The notes below the pieces were generated by a model that saw only the letters and a program-made list of their open reading frames with translations, had not been told where the DNA came from and did no database searches. Of a stretch of DNA of 64,000 nucleotides, positions 5,906 through 63,291 are shown in pieces. Where the stretch lies: NCBI GenBank assembly GCA_043228905.1, contig JBHGNT010000015.1, positions 12,710,001 through 12,774,000 of the forward strand, in the 5' to 3' direction. The number at the start of each line of letters is the position of its first letter. The stretch's first letter is position 1. The DNA is from Azolla caroliniana (lineage: Eukaryota; Plantae; Polypodiophyta). Made by a program: the position numbers and the translations under genes.

Positions 5906-6211
5906 GATGAGAGAATGATGATAAAAGATATATATTATGTGAAGAGAGTATTCAATAGTAGCTAGGAGGCTTAAGACTAGCGTTGAACCGATTTGGTTCG
6001 AAATAAGTCCTTGTGCCTCCTCTTATAGTGTTCTCAGGAGTACTCCTGAAGTTTCTAGAATGTTCTAGAGAAATCTGGAATATACATCAATTTTCTATAA
6101 TAAAACATCAATGAAAATAATATTTTACATATTACAATGTATGGTCTAATGGTCAAGAGCTCGACCCATGTAGCATAAGGTCATGGGTTTGAGTCTTGCC
6201 ATATCATGACA
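5776..6211 (-). repeat. 3' LTR of chromovirus A
   Basis: Closely similar to 21102-21549; contains a (GA)n tract. Confidence 0.93.
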
Positions 6212-15900: not shown

Positions 15901-18330
15901 TAGCTAACTAGCTGGCATTAGCTAATTAGCTGCTAGTAGGATAGCTAATTAGCTAGTAGCTAACTAGCTGCCACTTAGCTAATTAACTATTGTAGTAAAC
16001 TATGGCAGTAGCTAATTAACTAATAGGATAGCTATTAGCTGCTTTAATCAACTATGGTAGTAGCTAATTAGCTACAACGATAGCAGCAAAATAGTTTCCA
16101 TACTTTTTACGACTTAGCTAATTAGAAAAGACTAAGCTTATTAGCTACAGTATGGTATACCTATTAGTTTTCTCCACTCATTTGGTAGAGCTGGCTGTAC
16201 TGCAATCTCCCAAACAGAATGCAGCAATTCGACAGGCATGTTGAAAACAAAGCAGATGGTATGTGTGGTTGCATGGTTGTAGGTGAACCAACAAAGACGC
16301 AATTTTGTCCTCCACACCTAACCCGCAAGCGATGCAACGTGCTTGAACTGTCAATAAATCATTTTCTGGTTTTGCTTCATTTGGTAAGGGAGCAAGAATG
16401 TTCAGGTCCAAATCCTGTCTGGTCCTTACCATTCCCTCCACAAAATGTAGCTGCTTCTTAAGGCAGCTAACTACCTGTTCTTGATGAATGTATTGTTCCT
16501 TCAACGCAACAGAGAAATTTACCGATTAATTATTCCTGTTGTTGAAAGATACACCAACTTTGCTCAGGAATCGTTAACTTACTTGAAGCTTATCCAAATT
16601 GTAATCTGCAACAGTATTTACACCTAGAAGGTCCAGGTTCATTGAAAGAACCTGGATCTCTATTTGCAGTTGTATTTTACGCTGGGGATCCAGTGGCCCC
16701 TCTAATTCAAGCTCCTGTTGCGCAACCTATTCTAGATAATGCTTGATTAGCACATTTTACCCTTAAAGTTATTTATAACACAATCACATACCAACAAAAC
16801 AATAGTTACCTGAATCTTATTTCTAATCGTTGTAACAGCGGAAGTAACTTTGCTCTCCATTGCAGAAGCCATTGTGGCTTTCTCTAAATCAGTCTTAAAA
16901 CATGTCAATGTCTCACATGCTTCATGGACATTTTTTAGCATATAGCTAACCAATGTGTCACCTATATCATCGACATTGGCTTTCCTTGGGTGTCGGTGTG
17001 ATGTATGCCCCCGGTCTTGCTGGGAGTCGGCAGTTGCATCAACAACTGCCATGCTCCAAAATCTGTCTATTTTTTGTGCCAAGGTCCCCATCTTTCGGCA
17101 TCTTTTTACCGATGCCTCACCATAGACTGCCCAAGCTACCCTATACATTTGAGGGTCTCTAGATTCCTTCGCTGTTTTGCAGTACTCATATGCAAATGCT
17201 CTAGCAAATGAAACTGACAACTCATTGTTGACTGGGATCTCCTGATGAACTTTCTGGTGCAGTCTCATGCAGTCATCATACAAGTCGGCTCGTACATGCT
17301 TCAGCTTGACCTTGCCTTTGACTCTAGGCATTGTATATACTGTCATCCAGTCTACATCACTGATCAATTTATCACTTAGGACAATAGGGTCAACACCCTC
17401 GAGTGACAGACCATAGGTGTTGTGGAAGTCCTCCTTTGTCTCGCAAAATTTTGCGAAGTTTAGCACTCTTGTATACGGAGGAACGAGCCATCTGAAATAT
17501 CATTTCAAAAATTAGAAATAGTGCAAAATCAGAATATGTGAGAATCAGAAACCCCAATCAAAAACAACAAAAATGGTGCAAAATCTTTAACTTAGCAAAT
17601 CAGAAACCCTAATCATAATTTGTATTCAGAAATTTGAAATCAGAAACCCTAATCAAAATTTGTAATCAGAAGTTTGAAATCAGAAACGCTAATCAAAATC
17701 TGTAATCAGAAGTTTGTAACCAGAAACCCTATTCAGAAATTCTAATAAGAAATTTATAATCAAAAACCCTAATCAGAAATTTCAATTAGAAACCCTAATC
17801 AGAAAATTCAATCACAAACCCTAATCAGAAATCCTAAACAAAAATTTATAAACAAAAACCCTATTCAGAAATTCTAATCAGAAATTCTAATCTGTAATCA
17901 AAATTTGTAACCAGAAACCCTATTCAGAAATTCTAATCAGAAATTTATAATCAAAAACCCTAATCAGAAATTTCAATCAGAAATTTCAATCACAAACCCT
18001 AATCAGAAATTCTAATCAGAAATTTATAAACAAAAACCCTAATCAGAAATTTCAATCAGAAACCCCAATCATCACTAAAGACAGGATTAAACACAAAAAA
18101 AGTAATATAAACACACCTGTTGCTACTCCCCGATTTGCGAGACATCCTTGTATGGGACTCCAAGGACTTCGCCCTATTTGATTTTGGAGAAATATGAATC
18201 GGCACCAAAGTTCAGACAGTAGTCAAAAAGAAAAAACAAATGTTTGGGGTTTCTGTAACTGAAACATACCTGGACGATGATCGAGCGGGTTCTGTGTTGT
18301 AGCTCTCAATCTGCAATGTCGATTTTCTGC
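12899..18330 (-). CDS. Multi-exon accessory gene of the Sola2 element (probably partly decayed): unknown N-terminal domain, coiled region, RING-like finger, acidic and repeat region
   Basis: ORF blocks bounded by AG/GT sites at ~17491-16810, ~16727-16583, ~16499-16162, ~14550-14040 and ~13785-12899. CIAC...CNHTYHLLC...C motif. Exon limits are approximate. Confidence 0.6.
13465..13627 (-). repeat. 39-bp coding tandem repeat (TDDLVLQVDAACS x4)
   Basis: CATGCTGCATCTACCTGCAACACCAAGTCATC repeated 4 times. Confidence 0.9.
14590..16150. repeat. Second intronic array of TAGCTAATTAGCTA-based units
   Basis: Dozens of GATAGCTAATTAGCTA cores with variable spacers such as CTTTACTCAACTATGGTAG, lying between exons of the accessory gene. 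Confidence 0.95.
17520..18072. repeat. Intronic AAACCCTAATCAG (telo-box-containing) minisatellite
   Basis: Repeated CAGAAACCCTAATCAGAAAT variants. Confidence 0.85.
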
Positions 18331-21256: not shown

Positions 21257-21549
21257 TGATAAAAGATATATATTATGTGAAGAGAGTATACAATAGTAGC
21301 TAGGAGGCTTAAGACTGGCGTTGAACCGGTTTGGTTCAAAATAATGCCTTGTGCCTCCTTTTATAGTGTTCTCAGGAGTACTCCTGAAGCTTTTAGAATG
21401 TTCCAGAGAAATCTGGAATATACATCAATTTTCTATAATAAAACATAAATGAAAATGATATTTTATATATTACAATGTATGGTCTAATGGTCAAGAGCTC
21501 GACCCATGTAGCATAAGGTCATGGGTTTGAGTCTTGCTATATTATGACA
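21102..21549 (-). repeat. 5' LTR of chromovirus A
   Basis: Paired with 5776-6211; adjacent non-tRNA PBS at 21088-21099. Confidence 0.93.
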
Positions 21550-22090
21550 ATTGCCAACATAATAACGAAGAACATATGATTACAAAACGTCTCTTTCTTT
21601 CTTGTTGTTTTATCGTATTTACCTTTTTTTTCCAAAAACAAAACCACTTCCATTAGTTAAGGCAATGTACATAGGATAATAAACAACTCATATCTTACAA
21701 GCCAACTTGCATGACGAAACAGGAAAAGAAACTCCAAAACTCCACATCCTCCGATGAGCATAGCATTACTCGACCGCATACCCTCCACGTGAGCCTCATA
21801 CAACCCGAATTCCTCATAGACATCCTCCAATATTTTCTTGTGGCAACACCCATCTATATGTTAGGTACACTCGGGGGGAACAACCACTATGGTGGTTGAT
21901 CATTCCACTTAGCTTTGTCATCCACCATCTGCAGCATCGAAGAACCTCTCCATTTTAGAAGGAATCGAGCTCTAGCTTCCCCACTCGCGTCCATGGGCCC
22001 CTGAAGACTTTCAAATGCTTCTCGTAGCATAGAAATAAGATTAAACCAGATCATCATTAAACTCTCAACCGATGGGGTTTAGGGTTTAGG

Positions 22091-23300
22091 GTTCAACAAA
22101 ATCCAAAAATCTCTGAGTTTGAGCTTCAATAACATTTCCCACCTCTTCAAACCCCAAATGAAACAAATGATTAAATTGAGAGTGCAATTTCTCCTTTGAT
22201 TGTGAACATTATAGTCAAGCATTTCCCACCTCTTTAACCCCCAGATGAAACAAAGAATTAAATTGAAACTACAATTTCTCCTTTGATTGCCAACATAATA
22301 ATGAAGAAGACACGATTACAAAAAGTCTCTTTCTTTCTTGTTGTTTTTTTATCGTAATTACCTTACCCTAGCTCTACTACTGAATAATAAACGTAGATTT
22401 GAGTGGAATGCATAATAAGCATCATAGTTCAACAAAATCCAAAAATCTTTGAGTTTGAGCTTCAATTACATTTCCCACCTCTTCAAACCCCAAATGAAAC
22501 AAATGATTAAATTGAGAGTGCAATTTCTCCTTTGATTGTGAACATTATAGTCGAGCATTTCCCACCTCTTAAACCACCAGATGAAACAAATGATTAAATT
22601 GAGACTACAATTTCTCCCTTGATTGCCAACATAATAATGAAGAAGACACGATTACAAAAAGTCTTTTTCTTTCTTGTTGTTTTTTTTATCGTAATTACCT
22701 TATCCTAGCTCTACTACCGAATAATAAACTAAGAATTGAGTGGATTGCATAATAAGCATCATAGTTCAACGAAATCCAAAAATCTTTGAGTTTGGGCTTC
22801 AATTACATTTCCTACCTCTTCAAACCCCAAATGTAACAAACGATTAAATTGAGACTACAATTTCTCCTTTGATTGCCAACATAATAATGAAGAAGACACA
22901 ATTACAAAAAGTCTCTTTCTTTCTTGTTGTTTTTTTTATCGTAATTACCTTATCCTAGCTCTACTACCGAATAATAAACTAAGAATTGAGTGGAATGCAT
23001 AATAAGCATCATAGTTCAACAAAATCCAAAAATCTTTGAGTTTGAGCTTCAATTACATTTCCCACCTCTTCAAACCCCAAATGTAACAAACGATTAAATT
23101 GAGACTGCAATTTCTCCTTTGATTGCGAACATAATAGTCAAGCATTTCCCACCTCTTTAACCGCCAAATGAAACAAAGGATTAAATTGAGACTACAATTT
23201 CTCCTTTGATTGCCAACATAATAACAAAGAAGACATGATAACACAACATATCTTTCTTTCTTGTTGTTTTTTTATCGTAATTACCTTATCCTAGCTCTAC
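22091..23300. repeat. Tandem satellite, ~335-bp units with ~77-bp internal subrepeats
   Basis: GTTCAACAAAATCCAAAAATC recurs at ~22091, 22426, 22763 and 23014. Confidence 0.9.
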
Positions 23301-24028: not shown

Positions 24029-24732
24029 TGTCGTAGTGTATTCCACACACTACGTGAAAACCATAAAATAATATCTCTGATTTTAGATACATATAAATAA
24101 ATAAATAATATATCAAAATATTTATCACGTGCATAGGGCAGGATTCGAACCCTGGACCTCCAAGTAGATAAACCTCAACTTTATCATTGTAATAACTTAT
24201 CTTTAGTGTTATACATATAGATTTAATACGTATAAGACCTTTATTTACACATACCTTTATTAAAAGGTAAAAATCATGTATTCTTTAGGGTGTGAATATT
24301 TTATTTACACGTGACATTAAAAGTGACTCATGCACATCTAGCGTGCATGAGCCCTATACTTAGGAAATGACAAAGCATCACATGCACATTTAGTGTGCAT
24401 GGACACTTTTGGTGAAAAAGCATGAAGTCATGCTTAGCCTCTTCCATCTTTATATAAGGAGGAGAGAAATATGTATAAGGTTGTTGATTAATATACAAGG
24501 ATTGATCAATCCAATATATTCGTGGGATTCACGAATTTTGCCATCTAAATTACTCTTATAATCTAAATATTGTTTTAAATACACTAAACTCGTGGGATTC
24601 ACGAGATTGCTATCTTACTTCTCTTTCTACTATTCATAACTAGCCTTAAGTTGTATTCCTCTTCCTCCTAGTCCAAAACCTCGGCGGTTCCCACCCGACT
24701 CACGCAACGATCCGGAGCCGAAAGGCACGACA
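24029..24732 (+). mobile_element. Solo LTR of the tRNA-Trp-primed family (family C)
   Basis: TGTCGT...ACGACA termini, 4-bp TSD ACGG, homologous to 25485-26382. Confidence 0.9.
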
Positions 24733-24751
24733 ACGGGACTACGTAAGACTC

Positions 24752-24825
<74 letters not shown>

Positions 24826-24893
24826 TAGATAGATAGATTATATTATCGTCTTCGGAGATCAAATATGACCTATGAGACCAAAAATATTACATT

Positions 24894-27800
24894 TCACGTG
24901 ATACGTGTGAAAGTGAGTAGTGACTCTCGATGTTCAAGAACTTTACCAATGAATGTTGCAATCGAGAGTGCACATTGTGGTTGTGAGAGGAATTCATGCA
25001 AAGATTGGGCTCGATCGAAGAGATATGGAAAGCATGGTCGAATATGATCAAAGGCAGAGCATTGTATCAAAGTGTGATACTCAGACTCGCGAACTTGTTT
25101 AGGGCAAAGTGTACATAGCCGACCACTCTCATCACTTGTACCCCAACGCCTTATTTCACATCGCAATGCATGTGAGCTAAGTCGCATGGAAGCAATGGTT
25201 CGAATGGCAGATAACGGTATGGGCTCTAACATGTATGGATGTGTACGATTTCCCCGTTCCGCAAAGAATATGGTTTTGTAGTTAGGTGCAACATGTGTAG
25301 TATAATGTGTGAAGCGTGAGCCTCCACATTTGTCCCATGTCATGGTACATTGGCGTTGCAAAAATGCCTCATTTACAGAGGAATCTAATGATGCATCATG
25401 AAGCAAGTGTCTCGCATCCCATCTACCAAACCATTTTTCTACATCTTGCATCCAACCGGAACACAAAATTTTGCTTTTATGCGTTGTCGTAGTGTATTTC
25501 GTACACTACGTGAAAAAGTAAAAATAATATAACCGATTTAATTACATATAAATAAATAAAATAAGAATATCAAGATATTTATCACCAATAAATAAAATAA
25601 AAATATCAAGATATTTATCACGTGCATAGGGCAAGATTTGAACCTTGTACCTCCACGTAGCCAAACCTCAACTTTACCATTATGCTACCTTATCTTTAGT
25701 GTTCTATAAATAGATTTAATAACTATAACTGCTTTATTTGCGCCTACCTTTATTAAAAGGTAAATCATGTATTTTTAGAGTGCGTGAATATTTTATAGAA
25801 AAACGCAAGCGACTAAAAAGTGACTCATGCACATCTAGCGTGCATGAGCACTATATTTAGCAAATAAAAGCAAGGATTAGAAAAGCATCACATGCACATT
25901 TAGTGTGCATGAACATATTAGAAAAAAAGCATGTAGCTATGCTTAGTCTCTCCCATCACTACATAAGGATGGGGAGCACAATGTAATAGGTGTGTGAAAA
26001 ATATTTGGGAAATTGGATATATTTCCTAAAACACCAACAATCAATAAAATATACTCGTGGGATTCACGAAGTTTAAGATAATCTATCTCTTTCAATCTAA
26101 ATTCATATTCTTACATAAATATTGATTAATGTAATACTTGTGGGATTCACAAGGTTTGATCTCTTTTCTCAATCTACTCTAATCTATTCTAAATTATTTC
26201 AATTTATTACTACGATTTAGATAAACTAAAACAATTATACTTGTGGGATTCACAAGTTTCTATATCTCTTTCTAATAATCTATTCATTACTAGCCTCATC
26301 TCATATTCTTCTTTCTCCTAGTCCAAAACCTCGGCGGTTCCCACCCGACTCACGCAACGATCCGGAGCCGAAAGGCACGACACAGTTGGTGAACCCGACG
26401 TGAAGGCGGGTGGCAAGGAGATGGAGAATCAACAAGAGGCGATGAACATGATGATGATGATGTTCGAGAGAATGCTACAAGAACAACGCGAGATGTCGGA
26501 GATCACGACAGTAGTACAACGGCTCGTGCAACAGAACGGGCAATTCGATGGAAAGGACGTGTCACGCTATCTACGTGACTACAAAATGGAGATGTTGCGA
26601 TATGGTATCTCAGAAAGATTGCAAGTGTTATCTTTCAACCGGGTGGCTACGGATGAGCTTCAAGAGAGAATCCACGAGATACGACAACAAAGCCCGATGT
26701 GGGAGTCCTTTGAAGAAGCTATACGAGACACATATGACTATCTAAGACCGAAGCGGACGAGGACATGGTCCACGAACGGCGGTCAACAGTGGGTGAAAAG
26801 CGGCCACCGACTACCACCGAAGGAGAGCTTGATGCGGAAGGGTTCGGAGATGCATGAAAAGTCGCAAGTCGACATTGAAGGGGAGCTTAAAACCGAACCA
26901 AAGTCGAGGCCAACAAAGGACGAGGAGGAGGAAGATCGAGGACGAAAGGGTATCCCCACACCGGTTCCAGAGACTTCGGCGGCTGTGCCCGTGCACCAAC
27001 GTGAGACCGGAGAGACGGAATGTGTCGGTGGAAAAGTGGAGGACCGGAAGGGCAACGAGGAAGACAAAGTAAATGAGCACGAACGAAGGGATTCCTTCAC
27101 CATTGTTTCGGAGACTTCGGTACTGGAGCCCGGGTGTCGACATAACACCGAAGATAAGGAAAGTGGCGGCAACGAAACGAAGGTCGAAGCCGATGCATAC
27201 GAAGGAGAGATAGCCAAGGAGAACATGGCTATGGGTGAAACAACGGAAGATGATAATACCGAGGATTCCTACCCACTAATTCTAGAGACTTCGGCGGTTG
27301 TGTCCGAGAACCAACGTGAGACCGGAGAGACGGGAGGTGGCAACAAGGAAGGTAAAGTCGGAAGCCGGTTCGGATGGAAGATGATCCGTCTGAAATTCCG
27401 ATGTAAACAAAAGCATGACAACGCGAAGGTCGGGTCTACGATGGGAGAAGCATGTAATACGGAGCACGCACTACGGCACCAAAAGAAGCACGTGCTACGG
27501 CGTAAAGAGAAGCACACGCTACGGCGCAAAAAGAAGCACGCGCTACGGTGCAAAAATAAGCATGCACTACGGGGTAATACGGCGCATGCACTACGATGGA
27601 ATACGAAGCATGCGCTACGGCCTAATACGACGCATGCGCAACATCGAGAAATAAAGCATGCATTAAAGCCGCACAAGGACCTAACAGCGAGCGCGTATTC
27701 GGAGGTCGACATCGACGCGTGGGTAGAACCTACGGAAGACAAGCGCGGAGTGGAGAGAGACAACACACCGAGATGCTCAAGAGTACCACAAGGGACCATG

Positions 27801-30800
27801 ACAACCACTCATGGCAATGCAAAGAATGAACAAAGAATATGGTGGATCGGATGGCGACAATGGTTCGGGTGGAAAGAATGGGTCTACTCAAAATGGAGAG
27901 ACAAAGTTGACATAGCGGGACAAACGGAGGATGAAGGGGAGACAACGAGCATCGGCAACTTCGGCACATACCGGAGGATGTGCGGGTTCGGAGGGGGCGA
28001 GTGTCGTAGTGTATTTCGTACACTACGTGAAAAAGTAAAAATAATATAACCGATTTAATTACATATAAATAAATAAAATAAGAATATCAAGATATTTATC
28101 ACCAATAAATAAAATAAAAATATCAAGATATTTATCACGTGCATAGGGCAAGATTTGAACCTTGTACCTCCACGTAGCCAAACCTCAACTTTACCATTAT
28201 GCTACCTTATCTTTAGTGTTCTATAAATAGATTTAATAACTATAACTGCTTTATTTGCGCCTACCTTTATTAAAAGGTAAATCATGTATTTTTAGAGTGC
28301 GTGAATATTTTATAGAAAAACGCAAGCGACTAAAAAGTGACTCATGCACATCTAGCGTGCATGAGCACTATATTTAGCAAATAAAAGCAAGGATTAGAAA
28401 AGCATCACATGCACATTTAGTGTGCATGAACATATTAGAAAAAAAGCATGTAGCTATGCTTAGTCTCTCCCATCACTACATAAGGATGGGGAGCACAATG
28501 TAATAGGTGTGTGAAAAATATTTGGGAAATTGGATATATTTCCTAAAACACCAACAATCAATAAAATATACTCGTGGGATTCACGAAGTTTAAGATAATC
28601 TATCTCTTTCAATCTAAATTCATATTCTTACATAAATATTGATTAATGTAATACTTGTGGGATTCACAAGGTTTGATCTCTTTTCTCAATCTACTCTAAT
28701 CTATTCTAAATTATTTCAATTTATTACTACGATTTAGATAAACTAAAACAATTATACTTGTGGGATTCACAAGTTTCTATATCTCTTTCTAATAATCTAT
28801 TCATTACTAGCCTCATCTCATATTCTTCTTTCTCCTAGTCCAAAACCTCGGCGGTTCCCACCCGACTCACGCAACGATCCGGAGCCGAAAGGCACGACAG
28901 CGTCTTTTGGATCTTTTTGCTTGCTTCCCACGCAATTCTAGGAAGTCGATGTGAGGGACTTTTTTGAACCTTAAGCATGTATTCAACAACCCTTTCCATG
29001 GCCATGATCTCAATGGGAAGCGATCCCGTCTCAAGGAGGAGGAGGGTGTAGGGCGTTTGTTTCTTAACTTGTAGAAACTTGGTAAGAAAATGCTTTTGGA
29101 CATTTTCAAACTCTTTCCACATAGACTTAGGGATGCTACCGCCCCATACTTCCACCCCATAGAGAAGAACTGGTGTCACCAAAGTGTCAAAAAGATATTT
29201 CTTGAGGACCCAACACTTAATATCTCCAAGATTGCATGTGTTCTCAAATGCATAGTATGCTCGTTTGCCCGCCTTTAAGCGGCGTGTAGCACATTCATTC
29301 CATCTATGATTTGAAGGAACTTCAAGGCCAAGATATTTGAAGCTTTCCACACATTCAAGTGGCTCATTGTTGTACATAATGCATGGTTTATCTCTTTTTT
29401 GGCTCTTCACAAGCATAATCTTTGTTTTAGAGCTATTGACACTTAATTTAGTATGCATGCAAAAATTTTCCAATGCCTTCATAAGCTTTTGTGCATCTCC
29501 TAAAGTATTTGCAAAAAGCACTACGTCATCTGCATATAGCAAAAGCATAATCACAACATTCCCAATGGCAACTTCTTCAACACATTCTTCCTTTGCAAAC
29601 TTGGTAACCATTTCTTCCAATTCATCAATGCATAGACCAAATAGTGTTGGTGAGAGTGGGCATCCTTGCTTTACACCAATAGTGCTTTTGAAAAAATCTG
29701 AAAGTTTATCTCTCATGCGCACACAACATATAACCTTCTCATAAATTCGGGAAATTGCAAGCATATATTCACTTGGCACCTCAAGTTCTTCCATTCTCCT
29801 CCAAAGATGCTCACGAGGTACCATATCAAAAGCTTTCTTGAAGTCTACAAAGCAACAATATAAACCTTTACCTCTAAGGCGACTTTCCTCCATTAATACT
29901 CGAAGGGTGATAAGGTGATCAATGGTGCTATGGTGTTTCCGAAAGCCAGCTTGTCCATAAGCTCTCTTACCACTTTTTTCAGCCCATACACTTATCTTTG
30001 ATTCCATTATACATCCAAATAGTTTTGCCATTAATGAGCCAACCATGATGGTTCGATAGTTGTTTACATTATTTATATCTCCACCTTTATGTAAAGGTTT
30101 GATCCAATTTGTAGTCCAATCGTACGGCATACCATGTTGCAATGCATCATTAAACATATCGCTTATCCATATATGTGCTTCCTTTCCCGTCCATTTGAGC
30201 ATTTCAGCCTTTATACATTGAAGATCGCTTGCCTTTCGAGAGGCCAATTTCTTAAGTCCTATGCATATATCTTCAATTGTAAAGAAGGAAGGCATATGTG
30301 AAAGAGAACCATAACACATCATCTTTCCGGCAAGAGATAACTCATATAAATTCTTACAATGCAGAGACAAGTCGTGAAGAGTTAAGTCACCATAACTCTC
30401 AACACGTTTTCCCTTTAGATTTCCCCAAAATTTAGCACATGCATGTGCTTTCTCTTGCGTTTGGATAAATTGTTGAGTAACTTCCCATATTCTTCTCTTT
30501 CTTTGAATAAGCCTTTTATACTCATGCAAATGCTTTTGGTAATTCTCTTTATCCTTAACTACATCCAAAACCATAAGGCACTTTCGAGCTTCACGACATT
30601 CTTTATCAAACCATTTTCTCCTAAGTTTCTTGGTGCATTTCCAAGATGTGCGGTTGGTCGAAAAACATTTGTTTGTACATGAGAGAATGACTTTCTTGAA
30701 AGCTTCCCATTTGCATTCTAGTGTGGCACCATGTTGTATCTTTGTCATTTGTAACATATCCTCAACCATCTTGGAATACATGGGTGCTCGCTTAAGGTTC

Positions 30801-31687
30801 ATGCTCAAGTGCGGTTGTTTATTAACTTCAATAGCCTTCTCACAATCAAACCTATGCATACATTTGAGATCAATACATAAAGGCCTATGATCTGATTCCG
30901 GTGTCCATTCACCAAGTGAGAATTTATGTATACGATCCAAAATACCTTCGGAAAGTAGCACATAATCAATCACACTATTTCCGTTGTATTTTCTACATGT
31001 AAAACCATTAGTGTTGGGCCATGAGGAAATACCATTTGCAATAAGCAATCTGGTACTATTGCACATTTGTAGGAGTAACTTCCCAAATTGGTCCGGATCT
31101 TTTTCATCGCTAGAAGAGCGGTTATACATTTGCATATCCTCTTGCATCCTTGAGATATGTGGCATGAAAGATTCTTGTGAATCAAGTTGGAAACTTCTTG
31201 TACGAGCATTCATGTCACCAAAGACAATAACTTCCCCTTTGGATTTGAAATAAGCAATATCATCTTCTAGATTGGCAAACGGTTGATCTTTATCCAAACA
31301 AGCATAAAAGTTAGAATCTTGATGAGGAATGTAACATCCAACAACAAAAGTGGGCAAATCATTAGGTGTTTCTATTTTGAGCCATATGTAGCATTTATTT
31401 TCATCATTTTTTATGATTGACACATATTTCTCTATTTCCTTCTTAATCAAACATGCCACCCCTCCTTGTCCTCTTCTTTGTCTTGGATTTTTCTTCCATA
31501 TCAAAGAGTGTACATTATAGTTTCCTAAACCTTGAATCCTTTGAGTATCATGCTCCCATGTTTCAACCAGAAGTGTGATATCCGAGTCATTGGTGAACTC
31601 CTCTATGCCAAATCCTGCATTCCATGGGTATCCATTGCAATTCCAAAAGCATAGTCGTAAAAGGCGTGGGTTAGTCTCATAGATCAC
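24894..31687 (-). CDS. LINE ORF2 (AP endonuclease + RT + Zn finger), open except for the LTR-element insertion at 25485-28899
   Basis: FWNCNG, GDMNAR, SDHRP, QAGFR, GVKQGCPLSP and LLYADD motifs. The frame rejoins across TSD GCGT (KKIQKTH-KSKILCSGW). Confidence 0.9.
26387..26404 (+). promoter_or_regulatory. Primer-binding site complementary to the 3' end of tRNA-Trp
   Basis: TGGTGAACCCGACGTGAA is the reverse complement of the plant tRNA-Trp 3' end (recalled sequence). Confidence 0.8.
26421..28049 (+). CDS. Gag-like protein with long low-complexity and basic repeat tail
   Basis: N-terminal GQFDGKDVSRYL resembles GRFDGKDATSYL of the gypsy gag at 53064. The ORF is open across the whole internal region. 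Confidence 0.65.
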   Translation: MENQQEAMNMMMMMFERMLQEQREMSEITTVVQRLVQQNGQFDGKDVSRYLRDYKMEMLRYGISERLQVLSFNRVATDELQERIHEIRQQSPMWESFEEAIRDTYDYLRPKRTRTWSTNGGQQWVKSGHRLPPKESLMRKGSEMHEKSQVDIEGELKTEPKSRPTKDEEEEDRGRKGIPTPVPETSAAVPVHQRETGETECVGGKVEDRKGNEEDKVNEHERRDSFTIVSETSVLEPGCRHNTEDKESGGNETKVEADAYEGEIAKENMAMGETTEDDNTEDSYPLILETSAVVSENQRETGETGGGNKEGKVGSRFGWKMIRLKFRCKQKHDNAKVGSTMGEACNTEHALRHQKKHVLRRKEKHTLRRKKKHALRCKNKHALRGNTAHALRWNTKHALRPNTTHAQHREIKHALKPHKDLTASAYSEVDIDAWVEPTEDKRGVERDNTPRCSRVPQGTMTTTHGNAKNEQRIWWIGWRQWFGWKEWVYSKWRDKVDIAGQTEDEGETTSIGNFGTYRRMCGFGGGECRSVFRTLREKVKII

Positions 31688-31693
31688 GTGTCC

Positions 31694-32921: not shown

Positions 32922-33253
32922 AAAAGAGAGATAGCGAGGATGAGAGAGAGAGAGAGATGATGATAACAACCAATATATTATGTGAAGGATAAGTACAAAA
33001 TGGCTAAGAGGCTTAAAACTGGCGTTGAACCAATTTGGTTCAACATAATGCCTAGTGCCTTCTTTTATAGTGTTCTCAAGAGTAATCCTGAAGCTTCTAG
33101 AATGTTCCAGAGAAATCTAGAATATACATTAATTTCCTATAATAAAACTTAAATGAAAATAATATCCTACGTATTACAATAGATAGTATAATGGTTAAGA
33201 GCTCGACCCATATAACATAAGGTCATGGGTTCGAGTCTTGCCATATCATGATA

Positions 33254-38055: not shown

Positions 38056-38505
38056 TGTTAGGAATAGTACTAAAGCAGAGATGGAATTAGTACTAAAGAA
38101 GGGAAGTACTATTAGTACTAAGAGGGCGGGATTGCGTAAGACTCCCAAGAGAGAGAGAGAGAGAGAGAATAGAAAAGAGAGATAGCGAGGATGAGAGAGA
38201 GAGAGAGAGATGATGATAACAACCAATATATTATGTGAAGGATAAGTACAAAATGCCTAAGAGGCTTAAGACTAGCGTTGAACCAATTTGGTTCAACATA
38301 ATGCCTAGTGCCTTATTTTATAGTGTTCTCAGGAGTAATCCTGAAGCTTCTAGAATGTTCCAGAGAAATCTAGAATATACATTAATTTCCTATAATAAAA
38401 CTTAAATGAAAATAATATCCACGTATTACAATAGATGGTATAATGGTCAAGAGCTCGACCCATATAACATAAGGTCATGGGTTCGAGTCTTGCCATATCA
38501 TGACA
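38056..38505 (-). repeat. 5' LTR of chromovirus B
   Basis: TG...CA termini; matches the reassembled 3' LTR. Confidence 0.9.
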
Positions 38506-38999
38506 CATGGCATGTCTTACACTTGGAGTATAAATTGGATCAAACCTTTACATGAAGCTTGAAATGTAACTTATAAACAGTTTTTGGACAACCCGGACAA
38601 CGATGGTCGTCTCACTTATGGAAAAACTAATTTGGATATATAATGAAATAAAAGCTAAGTGTATAAGCTGAAAAAAATGGTAAGAGAGCTTATGGACAAG
38701 GCGGATTTTGAAAAGACCACAACACACCTTGTTACCCTTCTACTATTTATGGAAGAAAGTTGTTGGAGAGGCAAGGGTTTAAATTGTTTCTTGGTAGACT
38801 TCAAGAAAGCTTTTTTTATGGTTTTAGTGAGAATCTTCATGCAAATGGAAGAAATTAGAACACAAAGTGAATATATCTTGTAATTTCCTAAAACTATGAG
38901 AAGGTTGTACATTGAGTACATATGGGCGATGAAATCTCAAAATCTCCCATTAGCATTGTTGATGTTAAATAAGGATAGTGCCCACTCTCATCAACTTTA

Positions 39000-45595: not shown

Positions 45596-45626
<31 letters not shown>

Positions 45627-48690: not shown

Positions 48691-51600
48691 TGTCAGGGAT
48701 AGTACTAGAGGAAAGGAGAATTAGTACTAAAAGTAGAGGAGAAGAATAAGGATTAGTACTAAGAAGGGAAAGAGTTGTGAGAACCATGTGAGAGGAGAGA
48801 GAGAGAGATAATGATGACAACAAGAAGTATATTATATTATAAGAAGAAAGATACATGAACAACTAGGAGGCTTAAGACTGGTGTTGAACCGAATTGGTTC
48901 TCAATAATGCCATGTGCCTCTTTTTATAGTATGTTTAGGAGTACTCTTGATATTTCTAGAATGTTCCAAAGAAATCTAGAATATGCATGGAGTGAAATAA
49001 TAAATGGAAATAATTATTTTTGTATTACAATCTATAGCTTAATGGTAAGGCTTCAACTTATGTGACACAAGGTCATGGGTTCAAAATCTTTTTGAAGCCA
49101 TACCATGGTATATCATGACACTACTCCCCCCACTTAAGACAATGAGTAGGACCTGGCTTGTCAGTATATTACCGATGGAAGTCCTCAATAAGAGCTCAAG
49201 CATTTACCACATTCTCGACTGGTTCCCAAGTACGCTCACTTGGACTATAGCCCAACCAATTGATCAAATAATAGAGCTTGTTGCGAACAATCTTGGAATT
49301 GAGGATGGTAGCAACTTCGTACTCCGGTCTAGCTTCAAGCTCGATCAGGGGTGGAGGTGGTGTAATACGATTCGGGATAGTGTTGACGCGATAGGGTTCG
49401 AGAAGAGAATTATGAAAAACCAAATGTATCCGTAGTTGTGGAGGTAGATCAAGACGATAAGTGACATCATTAATTTTTTTGATAATACGGAAAGGACCTA
49501 ATCATCGATAATCCAATTTATCGCATGGTTGAGTAGTCTTGATATGCCGTCGTAATAGCCATACCCGATTTCCAATGTCAAAACAAGATGGAAGCCGATG
49601 ATGATCCACATAAGCCTTTTGTGTTTGTTGAGCTTGATGTAAATGGGTAGATAGATCTACTTGTATCTTGCGTAGCCGCTCCAAATGATCCACTGCACGA
49701 GGATTTGTGGATAACTCTAGAGTTTCGAGTACACACCATTGAGGATGATAGCATGTATAAGCATAAAATGGTGTAACCCTAGTCAATGAGTGGATAGAGT
49801 TATTGTAAGAAAATTTGGCAAAGTTGAGAATATCCGCCCAATCATCTTGTTGATAGCTTAGATAACACTGAAGATACTGTTCCAGCATTTGATTTGTTCG
49901 TTCTGCTTGTTCGTTTGTTTGAGGATGATAGCCGGAGGAGAGGTTACAAGTGACATTAAGCACTTTGAAGAGATGCTTCCAGAATGTCGAGACAAATTGA
50001 GGTCCACGGTCGCTGATGATATTATCCAGGAGGCCATGATGCCGAATTACCTCATGCATGACAACTTCGACGGTTTCTTCACTAGTGATTGCCTTAGTAC
50101 AAGACAGGAAATGTGCCATCTTAGTATATCAATCTACTATTGTTAAGATCGCATCAAATCCCTTTGAAACTAGAAGATCTGTGATAAAATCTAGAGCAAT
50201 GGACTGCCACGGCTTGCTTGGAAGTGGTAATGGTTCCAATAAACCATATGGATGATGTCTTGGCATCTTTGCTCTACAACATGTATCACATGTCCAAACA
50301 TAGTCTTTGACAAATTGTCGCATATGAGGCCACCAAAATGATCGTTGTACTTAATTCAACGTTTTAGTACTACCAAAATGTCCCGTTGTATATGTGTCAT
50401 GACAATTTTGGACTACTCGAAGGCGACAAGAACCATTGGGAACATACAAGATTTTCTTAAAGAATAGTAATCGATCATGACATTTGAATTGTCGATAATC
50501 CGTACCTAGTTGTTGTGACTGTGAACAGGTTGCCCACGAGGAATCAATTTGCGCCGAAATGTCTTGAGTGAAAGCGTCTGTCTTCAAGTCTTCACATATG
50601 GTCTCGATAATACGAGAATCCAATGGAGTATCACAAACCCACGTTGCTTGTAGTCGTGATGGTCCTAGGATGACTTGCTTTTGATTATCGAATGCTAGAT
50701 CACCGGGACGAGGTGCTAGATACGAGCGTCGCGATAATGCATCTGCCTTCCCTTGTAATTTTGAAGTCGAAGTGAGTGAGGAATTGGGCCCACCGAGCTT
50801 GACGTTGATTTAATACACGAGCATTCTAGAAATAGGCAAGGTTTTTGTGATCACTAAATACAATGATTTGATGAGAAGATCCCTCTAAAAAATGCCTCCA
50901 TTGTGCAAAAGAGTCAACTATTGCTAATAGCTCCTTGTCATGTATCTCATAGTTTATTTCGGCGGCGTCAAACTTGCGTAAGTGGAAAGCCATAGGATGT
51001 AGTTTTTCATCATCGCCTTATAGTGACAGAATGCTACCAAGGGTGAAATCCGACGTGTCTGCCTCCATGATGAACGGTTTTTTCATATCAACATGAGCTA
51101 GAATAGGAGTTGATGTAAATGCTTTCTTAAAACTTACAAAACCCGTGTCCGCTTCCTTAGACCAAACAAACAACTGCCCCTTCTTGGTAAGCTGTGGGAG
51201 AGGCAAAATAAGCTTTGAGTAGTCCTATATAAACTTGCGGTAGAAATTTGTGAAGCCTAGAAAACATTGCACATCTCGCAACAAACGGGGAGTCTGCCAC
51301 TCTACCACTATTTTGACCTTAGTTGGATCCATGGAGATGCCTTCCGAGGAGATGACATAGCCTAGAAATTCCACATGATTGCAGTCAAAACTACATTTTT
51401 CCAGTTTTGCATAAAGACCATGTTCTCGAAGTCGTTTTAGTACTAATAGTACATGAGAATCATGCTCTTCTTGAGTCTTCGAATAAACTAGTAGATCATC
51501 CAAATAGATGATCAAACAAATATCCAAGAGATCTTGGAATATATCATTTGCCATGTGTTGGAAGACTATTGGCGCATTGTGAGACCAAATGGCATAACCG

Positions 51601-53601: not shown

Positions 53602-56600
53602 CGTCATGATATGGCAAGACTCGAACCCATTACCTTATGGTATATGGGTCGAGCTCTTAACCATCACACCATCTATTGTAATTCATAGAATATTATTTTC
53701 ATTTATGTTTTATTATAAGAAAGTAATGTATATTCTAGATTTCTCTAGAACATTCTAGAAGTTTCAGGATTACTCCTGACAACACTATAAAAGAAGGCAC
53801 TAGACATTATGTTGAACCAAATTGGTTCAACACCAGTCTTAAGCCTCTTAGCCGCTTTGTACTTATCTTTTCACATAATATATTAGCCGCTGTCATCATC
53901 TTTCTCTCTCTCTCATCCTCGCTATCTCTCTCTCCTCTTCTCACTTCCTCTCTCGGGAATCTCACGCATCCCGTCCTCTTAGTACTAATAGTACTTCTCT
54001 TATTAGTATTAATTCCATCTTTGCTTTAGTACTATTCCTGACAGTTTGAACCAATTTTTCTTCCTTTCCTCCTACCCTTTTCCCTATACTATAGCTACTG
54101 TTAGTGCCCAAGAATATCAATCCGTTTTCTCCGAGTTACAGTGCCTAAAAGAAAAGTTTGTTGCCCTGGAACAAGAAAACCAACGGTTGATAGGGGATCT
54201 GCAACAAATCGCTCTCAAAAAACAACAAACGCAACAACAACATGGCGAGTTAGCGTTACGGGTACAACAACTCGAAGCAGCGTTGCAACAACAAGGATCA
54301 AGTCCCCAAGGATTTCATAAAGAGCCCAAGATTGGACTTCCTGTGAAATTTGATGGAACATGATCGCAATTCCGGGGATTCCTTAATCAGGTACGCTTAG
54401 TCATCCAGATGCATCCTTCCCGATATCCCACTGATGCATCTCGAGTCGGCCTAATAGGCACGTTACTTAGCGGCTCAGCCTTGGCATGGTTCACTCCACT
54501 TCTAGAGAAACAATCACCCTTGCTTAATAACTTTGAAGATTTTATTGGTGAGTTTAAAGCCTGCTTTGGAGATACCGACAACATCAGGACGACGATCAAC
54601 AAGATCTGAAGATTGCGTCAAGCCGATCGTCTAGCCTCGGCCTACGCGGTAGATTTCCGTCTACTCGCCTCAGATATCCCCTGGGATGATCAGGCCCTCA
54701 TGGAGCAGTTTCGCTACGGCTTGCGCAACGATGTCAAAGACTTGCTTTTAACCTTCCCCGAGGAACCAAAGTCTCTTACGGAGGCAATCAGTCGAGCGGT
54801 CCGATGCGACAACCGCCTTTTCGAACGGCGTTCGGAACGTCAGTTACAAATACCACGCTCTCGGCCGGAACCCACATACGGCTCAGTCACAGCTAAACCG
54901 TTTGCACGCGATGTACCTCAAGCCAATATTCCGACACCGATGGAGATTGACACCATGTGTCAACGCGGCCCGTTATCGGAAGAAGAAAAGCAACGACGAC
55001 GTGCCAATCGATTATGTCTTTATTGTGGTGGACCAGGGCATATCGCCATCAATTGTCCTCATAGGCCAAAAAGACAGGTAAATCAAATCGTCGCCTGTAC
55101 TAAACCCGAGTCAATTATTCCCTTCGGAGTGTCTGATAGTATTAATAGTACTAATAGGGTGTCATATAGTATTCATAGTACTAATAGCCCAAGTATCTCA
55201 AATAAATTTGAAGTCCTTAGTCAATTAGATGAAGAGTTAAACGATTGAGTCCAGCCAAAATAGGAGCCGTTTGGTTGGACAGCAGCCCTAGATCTGTACA
55301 ACCTATTAGTGGTTCCATTCCCTCTAAGCAAGTTAGCAATGTGTTCCTAGCCCAAGTCATTGTTAGTACTAAAAGTACTCCTCCAGTACCCTTCCTAGCA
55401 CTTTTAGATTCCGGAGCTAATTCCTGTTTCATGGATCGAAATTTTGCCCAAGCTTCTCAGATATCCTTAAGAAAACTTCATTGTCCCGCATTTGTAGTAG
55501 TTATTGATGGTCGTCCCATTGCTTCCGGGAATATTGTAGAAGAATCAGAACCCATTCAAGTTGTCCTAGGTAGTTTTGTGTGTGTAATATCATTTAATAT
55601 AATTAGTAGTCCAAAGCATCCCATTGTCCTGGGATTACCTTGGTTTGAGTTACATAATCCAGCCATAGATTGGAGAACAAGAGAAGTCCGATATCGACCA
55701 CCCCAAGAATCTACTCACCGAGTTTCGACCATTTCACTCTATCAATTACGCGAAGAAGGACACAAGGAGGCAATGTTCCTATTTGCAATATCAGTACATC
55801 CTTCCAGCACTATTAAGAAGGACTCCTCAGTACAACTTCCGACAAAATATCATCCTTATGCCGATGTATTTGACAAGGTAAAAGCCGGTACCCTTCCTCA
55901 TCACCGTCCCTATGACTGTCCCATCGATTTACAACTAGGAACCGAGCCACCATGGGGACCAATTTACAACTTGTCACCCACCGAGTTAGAAGTCCTTCGA
56001 GCCTACATAGAGGAGAACTTGGCAAGCGGGTTCATCCGTCATTCGAAATCTCCGGCCGGTGCACCCATCTTCTTTGTCAAGAAGAAAGATGGCTCACTTC
56101 GTCTCGTCGTTGATTACCGCGGATTGAATAAGGTCACCATCCGGAATAGGTATGCACTTCCTCTTATATCAAGTCTTTTGGAGTGAGTTAATGGTGCCAA
56201 GTTTTTTACCAAAATCGATCTACGAGGAGCGTATAACCTCGTGCGGATCCGACCGGAAGATGAATGGAAGACTGCCTTTCGCACGCGATATGGGCATTTC
56301 GAGTATACTGTTATGCCGTTCGGCTTAACCAATGCACCCGCAGTCTTCCAACACATGGCAAATGATATATTCAGAGACCTCTTGGATATCTATTTGATCA
56401 TCTATCTGGATGATCTATTGATTTATTCGAAGACCCAGCAAGAGCACGATTCTCATGTACTATTAGTACTAAAACGACTCTGCGAGAATGGTCTTTATGC
56501 CAAGCTAGAAAAATGTAGTTTTGACTGCAAGCAAGTGGAATTTCTAGGCTACATCATCTCCTCAAAGGGCATCGCCATGGATCCAGCTAAAGTCCAAACT

Positions 56601-59270
56601 GTATTAGAGTGGCAAATTCCACGGTCGGTACGAGATGTACAATGTTTTCTAGGTTTTGCTAACTTCTACCGTAAGTTTATACAGGATTACTCGAAGATTA
56701 TTTTACCCCTCACACAACTTACGAAGAAGGGCCAAGCATTTCTTTGGTCCATTGAAGCAGATATGGCTTTTCGGCATCTTAAGAAAGCCTTTACATCAGC
56801 ACCGATTCTAGCTCATGTGGATACCAGAAAACCATTCATCATGGAGGCCGGCGCTTCAGATTTCGCTCTCGGTAGCATCCTTTCTCAACAACGAGATAAA
56901 GAAGAGTTGCATCCGGTGGCTTTCCATTCGCGCAAATTCGATGTCACGGAAATCAACTACGAAATACATGACAAGGAGTTATTAGCCATCGTGGATTTAT
57001 TTGTGCAATGGCGGCATTTCTTAGAGGGCTCTCCACATCAGGTCATTGTCTTTATTGATCATAAAAATCTTGCTTATTTCCAGAACGCTCGCGTACTAAA
57101 TCGACGGCAAGCTCGATGGGCGCAATTCCTCACGCATTTCGACTTCAAAATCACATATCGACTGGGGAAGCAGCAAGGAAAAGCAGATGCACTATCACGA
57201 CGTTCGTATCTTGCACCTCATCCTGGATCCAACATTTGATAATCAAAAGCAAGTAATCTTGGGACCAACACGATTGCACACGACACGGATTTTTCACACC
57301 CCGATGGATTCACGGATTACCGATGACATACGTGCAAACTTGAAGACAGATAGCTTTGGTCAAGACATCCCGGCGCACATTGATACTTCTCGGGCATCCT
57401 GTTCTCAGTCTCAACAACCAGGTATTGACTACCGACAATTCGAATATCATAATGGTTTGTTATTCTTTAAAAAGCGCCTATATGTCCCCGATTGCTTCTG
57501 TCGCCTTCAAATCGTCAAGCATTGTCACGACACCCATACAGCGGGACATTTCAGTAGTACTAAGACGTTGGAGCTAGTGCAACGATCTTTTTGGTAGCCC
57601 CACATGCGCCGTTTTGTTGACGACTACGTTCGGACTTGTGATGCTTGCTGCCGAGCAAAGATGCCACGACACCATCCATATGGCTTGTTGGAACCCTTAC
57701 CGATTCCAAGTAAGCCGTGGTAGTCTATTTGTCTTGATTTTATCACAGATCTGCCGGTCTCGCAGGGGTTCGATGCTATCTTAACCGTTGTTGATCGATA
57801 TACGAAGATGGCACATTTCATTTCGTGTACTAAGGCCATCACTAACGAGGAAACCGCCGCCCTAGTCATGCGTGAGGTATTTCGGCATCATGGCCTCCCA
57901 GACAGTATCATCAATGACTGAGGACCGCAATTTGTCTCCAAATTTTGGCAGCATCTCTTCAAGATGCTCAAGGTCTCTTGCAACCTCTCCTCCGGCTACC
58001 ATCCTTAGACCGATGGGCAGGCGAAACGAACAAACCAAATGCTGGAGCAATATCTCCGGTGTTTCCTGAGTTATCAGCAGGACGATTGGGTCGACATTCT
58101 CCACTTTGCGGGAGTTTGCGTATAATAATGTTGTTCACTCCTCGACTTGAGTCTCCCCATTCTATGCTTATACCGGTTCTCATCCTCGTTGGTCGGTGAT
58201 CGACACCCCGGAACTACCTACCAATCCTCGTGCCAGGGATCATTTGGAGAGACTACGCAAGATCCAGACAGATCTCTCGACTCATCTTCGTCATGCTCAA
58301 CAAACATAGAAGACTTACGCGGATCGTCATCGGATTCCCTCCTCTTTTGCCATCGGAGATCAAGTATGGCTCTTACGTCGTCACATCAAGACTACTCGAC
58401 CATGCGACAAGTTGGATTATCGACGACTCGGTCCTTTCCGTATTACGGGTAAGGTTAATGATGTCACATTCCGCCTTGATCTCCCTCTGCAGCTTCAGAT
58501 ACATCCAGTTTTCCATTGTGCTCTTCTTGAACCTTATAAAGCCAACACCATTCCCGATCGTGTTACACCACCGCCGCCCCTGCTCGAGTTGGACACCAGC
58601 CCGGAGTATGAAGTTGCTGCCATCCTCGATTCCAAACTTATTCGCAACAAACTTTATTATTTGGTTGATTGGCTTGGTTATAGTCCGAGCGAACGCACTT
58701 GGGAACCCGTCGAGCATGTTGTCAATGCTCAGGATCTGCTTGCTGATTTCCACCGAAAGTATCCGGACAAACCCGGTTTGCAATCAGCACCGACTCGTTC
58801 CACTCGTCGTCTTTCAGGGGGAGATAGTGTCATGATATGGCAAGACTCGAACCCATTACTTTATGGTATATGGGTCGAGCTCTTAACCATCACACCATCT
58901 ATTGTAATTCATAAGATATTATTTTCATTTATGTTTTATTATAAGAAAGTAATGTATATTCCAGATTTCTCTAGAACATTCTAGAAGTTTCAGGATTACT
59001 CCTGACAACACTATAAAAGAAGGCACTAGACATTATGTTGAACCAAATTGGTTCAACACCAGTCTTAAGCCTCTTAGCCGCTTTGTACTTATCTTTTCAC
59101 ATAATATATTAGCCGTTGTCATCATCTTTCTCTCTCTCTCATCCTCGCTATCTCTCTCTCCTCTTCTCACTTCCTCTCTCGGGAATCTCACGCAGTCCCG
59201 TCCTCTTAGTACTAATAGTACTTCTCTTATTAGTACTAATTCCATCTCTGCTTTAGTACTATTCCTGACA
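53602..59270 (+). mobile_element. Tcn1-like chromovirus (copy F), full length, inserted in the gag of element E
   Basis: LTRs 53602-54043 and 58828-59270 are highly similar. gag ~54090-55248, pol to ~58830 with a chromodomain, PPT AGGGGGAGATAG. No clean TSD. Confidence 0.93.
55236..55290 (+). promoter_or_regulatory. Putative -1 ribosomal frameshift signal at the gag/pol junction
   Basis: G TTA AAC in gag phase, a 6-nt spacer, then stem GTCCAGCCAAA/TTTGGTTGGAC. pol is in the -1 frame. Also present in copies A and B. Confidence 0.7.
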
Positions 59271-62303: not shown

Positions 62304-63291
62304 TGTCGTGCCTTTCGGCTCCAGATCGTTTGCGTGAGTTGGGTGGGAACCACCGGGGTTTTGGACTAGGAGGAGGAAGAATTTGAGGCTAATCTAGTTA
62401 TGAATATGAATAGATTATAAGAAAGAGATATAGAAACTTGTGAATCCCACAAGTATAATTGTTTTAGTTTATCTAAATCGTAGTAATAAATTGAAATAAT
62501 TTAGAATAGATTAGAGTAGATTGAGAAAAGAGATCAAACCTTGTGAATCCCACAAGTATTACATTAATCAATATTTATGTAAGAATATGAATTTAGATTG
62601 AAAGAGATAGATTATCTTAAACTTCGTGAATCCCACGAGTATATTTTATTGATTGTTGGTGTTTTAGGAAATATATCCAATTTCCCAAATATTTTTCACA
62701 CACCTATTACATTGTGCTCCCCATCCTTATGTAGTGATGGGAGAGACTAAGCATAGCTACATGCTTTTTTTCTAATATGTTCATGCACACTAAATGTGCA
62801 TGTGATGCTTTTTATTTTATTTTATTTTATTTCCTAAGTATAGGGCTCATGCACGCTAGATGTGCATGAGTTATTTTTAGTGTCTCGTGTTTTTTCTTTT
62901 TCATATATTAAAGAAATACACGATTTACCTTTCAATAAAGGTATGCATAAATAAAGGTCTTATACATATTAAATCTATATTTAAAACACTTAAGATAATT
63001 TAATGTAATGGTAAGGTTGGGGTTTGTCAACGTGGAGGTGTAGAGTTCGAATCACGCCCTGTGTAGTAGTGAGTATTTCCTTTCTTTTTACATTTATGTC
63101 TCTTTATCCGGCTCTTCCTTGCCGGTATGCCGTTTTCCTCCTTGCCGGTATGCCGTTTTTCCTCCTTGCCGGTATGCCGTTTTCCTCCTTGCCGGTATGC
63201 CGTTTTCTTCCGGTTCTCACCGAGCACTCCATTCTCTATCCGGAGGGACAAAAATATAATTTCCACATAGTGTGCAACCTACACTACGACA
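62304..63291 (-). mobile_element. Solo LTR of family C (mosaic) inserted in the RT/RH region of element E
   Basis: TGTCGT...ACGACA termini, TSD ACGT at 62300-62303 and 63292-63295, and a ~22-bp tandem repeat at 63113-63205. Confidence 0.9.

Follow-up and report, generated by a model that had tools for sequence, protein, structure and literature searches.

Antisense A and B boxes of the tRNA type stand upstream of a TATA-like site within the long terminal repeats (LTRs) from two distant gypsy lineages of Azolla caroliniana, one Phygy-like and one Tcn1-like, on integrase branches with 100/100 support. This was the central claim of a first-pass annotation of the window (the whole stretch of 64,000 nucleotides analyzed here, from contig JBHGNT010000015.1), and it stands. 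The arrangement of these paired boxes, referred to here as the module, is real in autonomous plant gypsy LTRs; the function that we propose for it, that of a chromatin boundary, is predicted. Both the Phygy and the Tcn1 lineages were described from non-seed plants.

Box pairs in the LTRs of the window

The module was recognized in a 3.4-kb element at 25485-28899 that has an LTR pair, a primer-binding site (PBS) for tRNA-Trp and a polypurine tract (PPT). The 5′ LTR (25485..26382, 898 nt, with TGT...ACA ends) and the 3′ LTR (28002..28899) are 100% identical, and the target duplication GCGT lies at 25481-25484 and 28900-28903. The PBS (26387..26404, complementary to the 3′ 18 nt of tRNA-Trp, a gene for which occurs at locus L157 of the same genome) and the PPT (27990..28001) place the element on the + strand by their positions. 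A stop-to-stop frame of 575 codons (26322..28049, +) contains no pol and had no match in a Pfam search; over ~480 nt its 5′ part shares 78-79% DNA identity with, and is related to, the gag region in those members of the same family, family C, that encode pol. Two solo LTRs of family C are also present, one of subfamily C2 at 24029..24732 (+, ACGG duplication) and one of subfamily C3, inverted, at 62304..63291 (−, ACGT duplication), and all three family C insertions in the window have 4-bp target duplications of the NCGN type. Relatives of ~7 kb (L138-L141) encode gag-pol, with the order RT-RH-INT and no chromodomain in the pol frames of L139 and L141. Phygy has been described as a non-chromovirus Ty3/gypsy lineage with 4-bp NCGN duplications, a tRNA-Trp PBS (81%) and a length given as 7.7-10 kb in the available text of Neumann et al. 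(2019, PMC6317226). On the basis of the NCGN duplication, the tRNA-Trp PBS and the domain order, family C is Phygy-like, its pol-encoding members falling at ~7 kb slightly below the published size range, and the window element is a non-autonomous derivative of pol-encoding family C. The comparison lineage contains the Chromo domain (PF00385) and a self-priming PBS complementary to the start of the LTR R region, as in Tcn1, for which a chromodomain and self-priming are described (PMC6317226; Novikova et al. 2010, PMC2864245).

Modules were scored with a position weight matrix (PWM) trained solely on 33 tRNA genes of the same genome, whose own scores have a median of 24.3 bits and a tenth percentile of 18.5 bits. 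On the − strand of the 5′ LTR, the A box TAGCATAATGG (25677..25687) scores 11.3 bits against the genome's own tRNA A boxes and the B box GGTTCAAATCT (25634..25644) scores 12.7 bits. The motifs quoted in the first-pass annotation were all found where it had placed them, TAGCATAATGG at 25687-25677, GGTTCAAATC at 25644-25635 and GGTTCGAATCC at 24151-24141 on the − strand and, in the inverted solo LTR, TAATGTAATGG at 63001 and AGTTCGAATC at 63044 on the + strand. The spacing it gave, 45 nt, had to be corrected to 43 nt from start to start, which falls within the 42-45 nt seen in the genome's own tRNA genes (n = 33). Paired A and B boxes at tRNA spacing, a feature of type 2 RNA polymerase III (Pol III) promoters, are present in the 5′ LTR, with a total of 19.8 bits that was reached by 0 of 2,000 dinucleotide shuffles of the LTR (25485-26382). 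The 3′ LTR carries an identical module (A box 28204-28194, B box 28161-28151, −). The modules of the solo LTRs are weaker: that of the 24029 LTR (A box 24184-24194, B box 24141-24151, −; 12.2 bits) was matched by 25 of 2,000 shuffles and that of the 62304 LTR (A box 63001-63011, B box 63044-63054, +; 13.1 bits) by 21 of 2,000. The 24029 LTR does have the perfect B box claimed for it, with a degenerate A box at −0.3 bits. The copia LTR in the window scored −2.9 bits, with 1,845 of 2,000 shuffles as high.

Seven further modules in the window belong to Tcn1-like LTRs. Four lie on the + strand at 6142..6196 (18.7 bits, 70 nt inside the start of the LTR of an element on the − strand), 21480..21534 (18.7 bits), 33184..33238 (20.9 bits) and 38436..38490 (in a subfamily with a long hairpin fold, z −4.3); a fifth, from a second Tcn1-like family, lies at 49035..49088 (+, 14.8 bits) with a T run directly after it. 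The remaining two, at 18.3 bits each, are on the − strand in a 5′ LTR (53617..53671) and a 3′ LTR (58843..58897), with the element on +. In total, the window contains 8 sites of at least 18 bits, which are copies from two lineages, against 0.02 in block shuffles. A match to the shuffled background, a null explanation named with the original claim, fails, as the module is kept beyond neutral expectation. A functional tRNA gene was considered and rejected: ARAGORN found no tRNA gene in the window, Rfam gave no tRNA match with E up to 10 in 24029-26400, so that neither detected a cloverleaf, and the family C copy in the window folds ordinarily (z −0.6 to −1.1).

Distribution and orientation of the module

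The spread of the module was assessed by an element-first approach in which 3′ LTRs were placed by an integrase/RNase H match and a PPT and were scored afterwards, an antisense module being counted at 12 bits or more. The sample of 1.43 Mb comprised 3 contiguous element-rich regions, 54 arbitrary stretches and 7 loci chosen by module-like matches. From 132 pol clusters, 88 were kept and 44 were dropped (PPT not called or more than 800 nt off, C terminus missing, duplicate or too short). Coding sequence for copia RT and gypsy gag also contains PWM matches, of 12-19 bits, which were treated as chance, and a score of 12 bits is therefore not proof by itself.

Antisense modules were present in 13 of 13 Tcn1-like chromovirus LTRs, 69-106 nt in from the start of the LTR (L213, one of these rows, was taken from a module-picked locus), and in 8 of 8 LTRs of Phygy clade A, the clade of family C, 162-338 nt inside. 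Other Phygy LTRs had one in 3 of 12 cases, at 537-883 nt, and the single occurrences in distant chromoviruses (1/5) and copia (1/50) were both on uncertain LTR ends. The antisense module is a trait confined to two gypsy lineages and is not genome-wide. The suggestion that it reflects a general strategy in this genome does not survive these counts, nor the existence of a Phygy clade that lacks it. The presence/absence label requires at least 3 changes on the integrase tree, which covered 33 of the 38 gypsy rows. Five of the nine Phygy negatives fall in one clade (100/99 support) without the module, 3 of these with complete LTRs; one has lost it by a clean deletion that recurs in another copy; one bears a sense-oriented homologous module; and two are apparently interrupted by insertions. 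The module is therefore dispensable, since a supported clade lacks it and it has been deleted in 2 copies of another subfamily.

Box-bearing sites are abundant beyond the sampled elements. A genome-wide search with the clade-A B-box pattern returned 2,081 TTCRA and 776 TTTGA sites and 0 for the reversed control, which gives at least 2,857 box-bearing sites of the family C clade. Across 54 arbitrary 10-kb stretches there were 22 sites of at least 18 bits, against 0.8 in shuffles, including tRNA pseudogenes and several LTR families.

The module of the window element points away from its predicted Pol II core promoter, a TATA-like site at 25960..25968 (+) that occupies the place equivalent to TTATATAA of the 24029 LTR and that, at this probable position, would lie ~270 nt from the A box. 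The orientation opposite to the element, initially taken to hold throughout, is not invariable: in one Phygy subfamily a homologous module stands in sense orientation in U3 (spacer p 0.002 to 4 of 5 Phygy-B modules), which alone is weak (57-59 of 1,000 shuffles as high), and in some Phygy LTRs a further, sense-oriented module follows the TATA box. In four further Phygy-like LTRs the TATA box stands between two modules, an antisense one (19-25 bits) upstream of it and a sense one that starts 79-83 nt downstream, with the antisense one 249-281 nt ahead of the other (0-3 of 1,000 shuffles), so that both modules point away from the core promoter. The antisense copy is decayed in a fifth such LTR, and a tandem second antisense module (13.4 bits) occurs in at least one Phygy-like LTR. 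Alternatively, the module could be a landing pad, next to which Pol III-targeting retroelements would insert at a fixed upstream distance. This is extremely improbable, as 56 of 62 modules have at least 200 nt of unbroken homology upstream and the breaks in the other 6 (at 52, 67, 136, 167, 178 and 199 nt) have no common distance.

Conservation, predicted transcripts and origin

Element pairs were binned by integrase identity, and box conservation was scored over the 13 positions of the tRNA rule. In pairs with integrase fourfold-degenerate sites only 0.28-0.36 identical, in which silent sites are saturated, box positions are still 0.82-0.87 identical in Phygy (28 pairs) and 0.76-0.78 identical in Tcn1-like elements (50 pairs), figures that come from non-independent pairs and, for Phygy-B, from rows classed by the same score that is used for conservation (ascertainment). 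The same saturated pairs are 0.52-0.58 identical in the spacers (shuffle baseline 0.42), 0.53-0.60 in the upstream flanks (baseline 0.51) and 0.42-0.44 in the 3′ tails (baseline 0.33). No indel occurs between A and B in any of 17 dereplicated clade-A copies, which have many on both sides, and the box spacing is 43-44 nt in 12 of 13 Tcn1-like and 12 of 12 scored Phygy elements. We conclude with moderate confidence that the box positions are under selection.

The first-pass annotation had also named neutral decay of an inserted SINE as an observation that would count against its proposal, and this mostly fails, because box positions outlast the neutral expectation. It is improbable, according to the same comparison of box positions with spacer, flanks and silent coding sites, that the module is a functionless passenger, copied along ever since a tRNA-SINE or a fragment of a tRNA became fixed long ago in an ancestral LTR; the held spacing and the repeated module gains or duplications around the TATA box also speak against it. 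Several observations nevertheless have the look of a passenger. The C56T form of the B box (TTTGA) is frequent (776 sites against 2,081 TTCRA), and the tolerated G57A form, TTCAA, made up ~30 of the first 100 TTCRA matches listed, by hand count, which makes the two CpG-decay products about equally frequent. Within the first 100 TTTGA matches listed, about 10 pairs lie close together on the same strand, which suggests that C56T copies have been replicated. In the amplified subfamilies C2 and C3, the A box departs from the canonical form by a change at G10. Symmetric decay and replication of decayed copies would be expected of a passenger, as would the loss of the module in one Phygy clade, its deletion in a subfamily and its occurrence in a small mobile repeat. 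The overall pattern fits a benefit over many generations and not a need in every round.

Whether selection would act on a transcript can be weighed from the predicted product. In 10 of 12 Phygy elements a run of T4 or longer occurs within 60 nt downstream, as T4-T5 at 11-33 nt beyond the B box, the flanks being T-rich; in the window copy, a T5 run at 25599..25603 (−), 31 nt beyond the B box, is a putative Pol III terminator and, if used, would yield an RNA of ~95 nt. The commonest Tcn1-like subfamily has a long hairpin (z −3.3 to −4.5), and the miRNA cassettes of foamy virus LTRs depend on A and B boxes (PMC3993851, in its available text). These observations, the hairpin-forming subfamily above all, are what would be expected if the module were a functioning Pol III gene with a short antisense RNA that is of use as a decoy, a silencing modulator or an miRNA-like hairpin. 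We regard such a gene as unlikely, though it deserves serious attention. The T runs are not at a shared position across families, and only 3 of 13 Tcn1-like elements have a T4 run inside the LTR, so that a transcript from the other 10 would continue into copy-specific flank. Spacers and tails are near the shuffle baseline between families. In folding against shuffles, 6 of 33 representatives reached z −3 or lower, with differing structures; no RNA structure common to the 33 was found, and the window copy folds no better than its shuffles.

Traces of a tRNA ancestry persist in the spacers, chiefly an AGGT-like motif that lies 4-5 nt ahead of the B box in most modules of both lineages. This motif qualifies the earlier statement that the family C spacer shows no evident similarity to that of the chromoviruses; cross-lineage spacer similarity (z up to 4.1, 276 tests) is no higher than that between modules and tRNAs (z up to 5.5, 672 tests). 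Both independent capture and one old capture followed by transfer therefore fit, and on these comparisons the convergence originally proposed cannot be told from a single ancient capture plus LTR exchange. Between Phygy-A and Phygy-B, the spacers are homologous. In a spacer-only comparison with 21 tRNA classes (two of them mutated Lys copies, and the set being without Ala, Pro, Met, Leu, Ser, Tyr, Ile(aat), Arg(acg/cct), true Glu and Thr(agt/cgt)), the best matches were of Lys, Thr, Asn and Cys type, with p of 0.003-0.08 for Tcn1-like and 0.007-0.22 for Phygy modules. Tcn1-like spacers are nearest to Lys-type tRNAs and Phygy spacers are weakly similar to Thr, Cys, Arg or Asn types; no single donor tRNA was found among these classes. 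An alignment of 17 copies contained no recognizable SINE body, tail or target duplication of its own around the tRNA head. A small repeat with GA-tract flanks contains two convergent modules, the left of which is shared with one Tcn1-like family (z 7.7); this homology implies that modules move between element types.

The tRNA-like character of the module could alternatively serve reverse transcription, if on the element RNA it acted as an anti-tRNA, base-pairing with the tRNA primer and aiding minus-strand transfer. The bipartite PBS of Ty3 and a tRNA-like stretch in HIV-1 U3 are precedents for primer-tRNA pairing. The antisense orientation and the U3 position would suit such pairing, and in subfamily C3 the region of the B box is similar to the T arm of tRNA-Trp. 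We nevertheless consider this role very improbable: Tcn1-like elements are self-primed from the LTR R start (PMC6317226) yet carry the module in 13 of 13 cases, tRNA-Trp is outside the top three spacer matches in 12 of 12 Phygy representatives, and sense-oriented modules exist.

A predicted chromatin boundary and its relation to known systems

Because boxes and spacing are kept, while spacer, tail, fold and terminator vary, a role at the level of DNA appears indicated, and the duplicated, inverted and promoter-flanking modules point the same way. The antisense module cannot produce the multikilobase sense RNA of the element. Insulation of the tDNA type has been studied chiefly in yeast and mammals. 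Barrier, insulator and roadblock effects are described for Pol III complexes, with the tDNA and ETC sites of yeast as the example (PMC4228148). By analogy, it is close to an even call that the module binds TFIIIC (and TFIIIB) and would serve as a chromatin boundary for the predicted Pol II promoter of the LTR. The module may have been captured from a tRNA gene or a tRNA-SINE. TFIIIC would then sit on the boxes at the outer edge of the LTR, and the outward-facing module would place TFIIIB between itself and the TATA box. The bound complex, and not an RNA product, would be what selection keeps; it could hold a nucleosome-poor zone and block the spread of flanking heterochromatin or read-through, so that the promoter would stay open.

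A broader version of this proposal is possible but on the whole doubtful. Two gypsy lineages would carry their own TFIIIC-bound insulators beside the Pol II promoter, each new copy would build a boundary on landing, thousands of LTRs would shape the chromatin of the genome, and the module would have undergone repeated gain, duplication and inversion, as well as exchange among LTRs and with a small repeat flanked by microsatellites. If TFIIIC is bound, the module may be a built-in defense of retrotransposons against silencing, and mobile TFIIIC sites would number several thousand in the genome, with one clade contributing at least 2,857.

The accessible text of the papers on Phygy and Tcn1 makes no mention of Pol III boxes in LTRs (PMC6317226, PMC2864245), and the published LTR of Selaginella SM-Tcn1 (PMC2864245) has no clear module when inspected by eye. 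A literature search that included the available text of PMC7466625 and PMC10424219, with subscription journals and Repbase outside its scope, found no report that describes such modules in the LTRs of autonomous gypsy elements from plants.

The closest described system is Helenus/TRIMp3, in which the LTRs have tRNA-like sequence, conserved chiefly around the A and B boxes and in most cases without a functional tRNA, and for which SINE capture has been proposed (Kojima 2024, PMC10886601). Helenus elements are non-coding and 311-1263 bp long, with Selaginella as the sole plant case; the accessible text also states that “not a few LTRs” resemble tRNA, in an analysis restricted to TRIMs of less than 1000 bp (PMC10886601). 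The family C element at 25485-28899 likewise has tRNA-derived A and B boxes in both LTRs. In the Helenus LTRs given in the available supplement text, the module is in sense (PMC10886601), whereas that of family C is antisense in U3; here, moreover, LTRs are 0.43-0.99 kb and elements 3.4-7 kb, often encoding pol, and the TATA promoter is kept. Family C was therefore rejected as a form of Helenus, as it is not miniature and non-coding and its module is not in sense. Cassandra TRIMs similarly have a Pol III internal promoter inside a plant LTR, but theirs is of the 5S rRNA type and drives sense transcription of the short, non-autonomous element itself (PMC10886601), whereas the boxes here are of the tRNA type. 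Simian foamy virus resembles the present case in having A/B-box Pol III units in the LTR of an autonomous retroelement with a Pol II promoter; its units encode defined hairpin miRNAs with terminators (PMC3993851), whereas here no hairpin or terminator is shared among the modules and tRNA ancestry is visible. The principle proposed here, a barrier, insulator or roadblock that is independent of any product, is that of the yeast tDNA and ETC sites, which are fixed host loci (PMC4228148), whereas the modules described here lie in mobile LTRs in thousands of copies and their function is predicted. The known Pol III promoters of LTRs, in Cassandra and Helenus, drive miniature elements; those of the two Azolla lineages face backwards in full-size elements of the Pol II type.

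Orientation and loss of the module in LTRs

In some Phygy-like LTRs, the TATA box is preceded by one or two antisense modules (tRNA-type A and B boxes at tRNA spacing) and followed by a sense module. Antisense and sense modules surround the TATA box in this way in sampled loci L252 (near position 8541), L302-L303 (near the junction), L285 (near 8450), L270 (near 2954), and L173 (at 1315). A Phygy-like subfamily (L264 near 2260 and L265 near 5496, minus strand) carries its U3 module in the sense orientation, and the spacer of that module is homologous to the spacers of the antisense modules of Phygy-B, a group of Phygy elements outside the clade of family C. Among the sampled loci, two copies of a Phygy-B LTR variant (L240 near 4996-6000 and L237 near 4357) have lost the module through a deletion of approximately 90 nt.

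The module of the commonest Tcn1-like chromovirus subfamily (window positions 38426-38506 and related LTRs) forms a long hairpin, with z scores of −3.3 to −4.5 against shuffled sequences, because part of its spacer repeats the B-box region in inverted orientation; no comparable long hairpin is seen in most other families. A distant chromovirus at L291, in the C4 sample and starting TGTTACAGGCAT, has an antisense site scoring 14.7 bits against the matrix trained on the tRNA genes of this genome. The site lies 714 nt from the LTR start, and it is not placed firmly inside the LTR since the LTR end is undefined.

Probable recombination in family C and neighboring repeats

Within the solo LTR of family C at 62304-63291 of the window, positions 62406-62812 are 100% identical to positions 25881-26287 of subfamily C1, whereas the U3 part belongs to subfamily C3. 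The LTR is thus chimeric, and this mixture of segments points to recombination between family C subfamilies. The family C element also interrupts the end of a LINE-type endonuclease-reverse transcriptase frame of 952 codons (28835-31693, minus strand), and an L1-like 3' region appears on both sides of the insertion. The window further holds several tandem arrays (10200-11050, 14590-16080, 17600-18070, 22090-23300, and 45590-46790). Among them are a long TATG microsatellite and arrays whose units measure ~336 bp, are palindromes of the TAGCTAATTAGCTA type, or span 13/40 bp and are full of AAACCCTAA-like motifs.

tRNA arrays and a repeat with paired modules

Genes and pseudogenes for tRNAs (Trp, Gly, and Lys) stand in tandem arrays in this genome (L157, L194-L207, L031-L039, and L335-L346), and contig C12 has an array of the Val type. 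Two convergent tRNA-type modules, the left one scoring ~25 bits, also occur together in a single repeat of ~230 bp (L166:1574-1806, L166:4425-4656, L313 near 2462, L254 near 3137, L215, and L160) flanked by GA/CT microsatellite. Nine units of ~61 bp, each corresponding to an A/B module of this repeat, form a tandem array at L290:8797-9287 (minus strand). The GA tract of one Tcn1-like LTR holds a copy of the repeat. In the Tcn1-like LTR at L212, the U3 module is homologous to the left module and tail of the repeat. The repeat may be SINE- or MITE-like and either the donor or a derivative.
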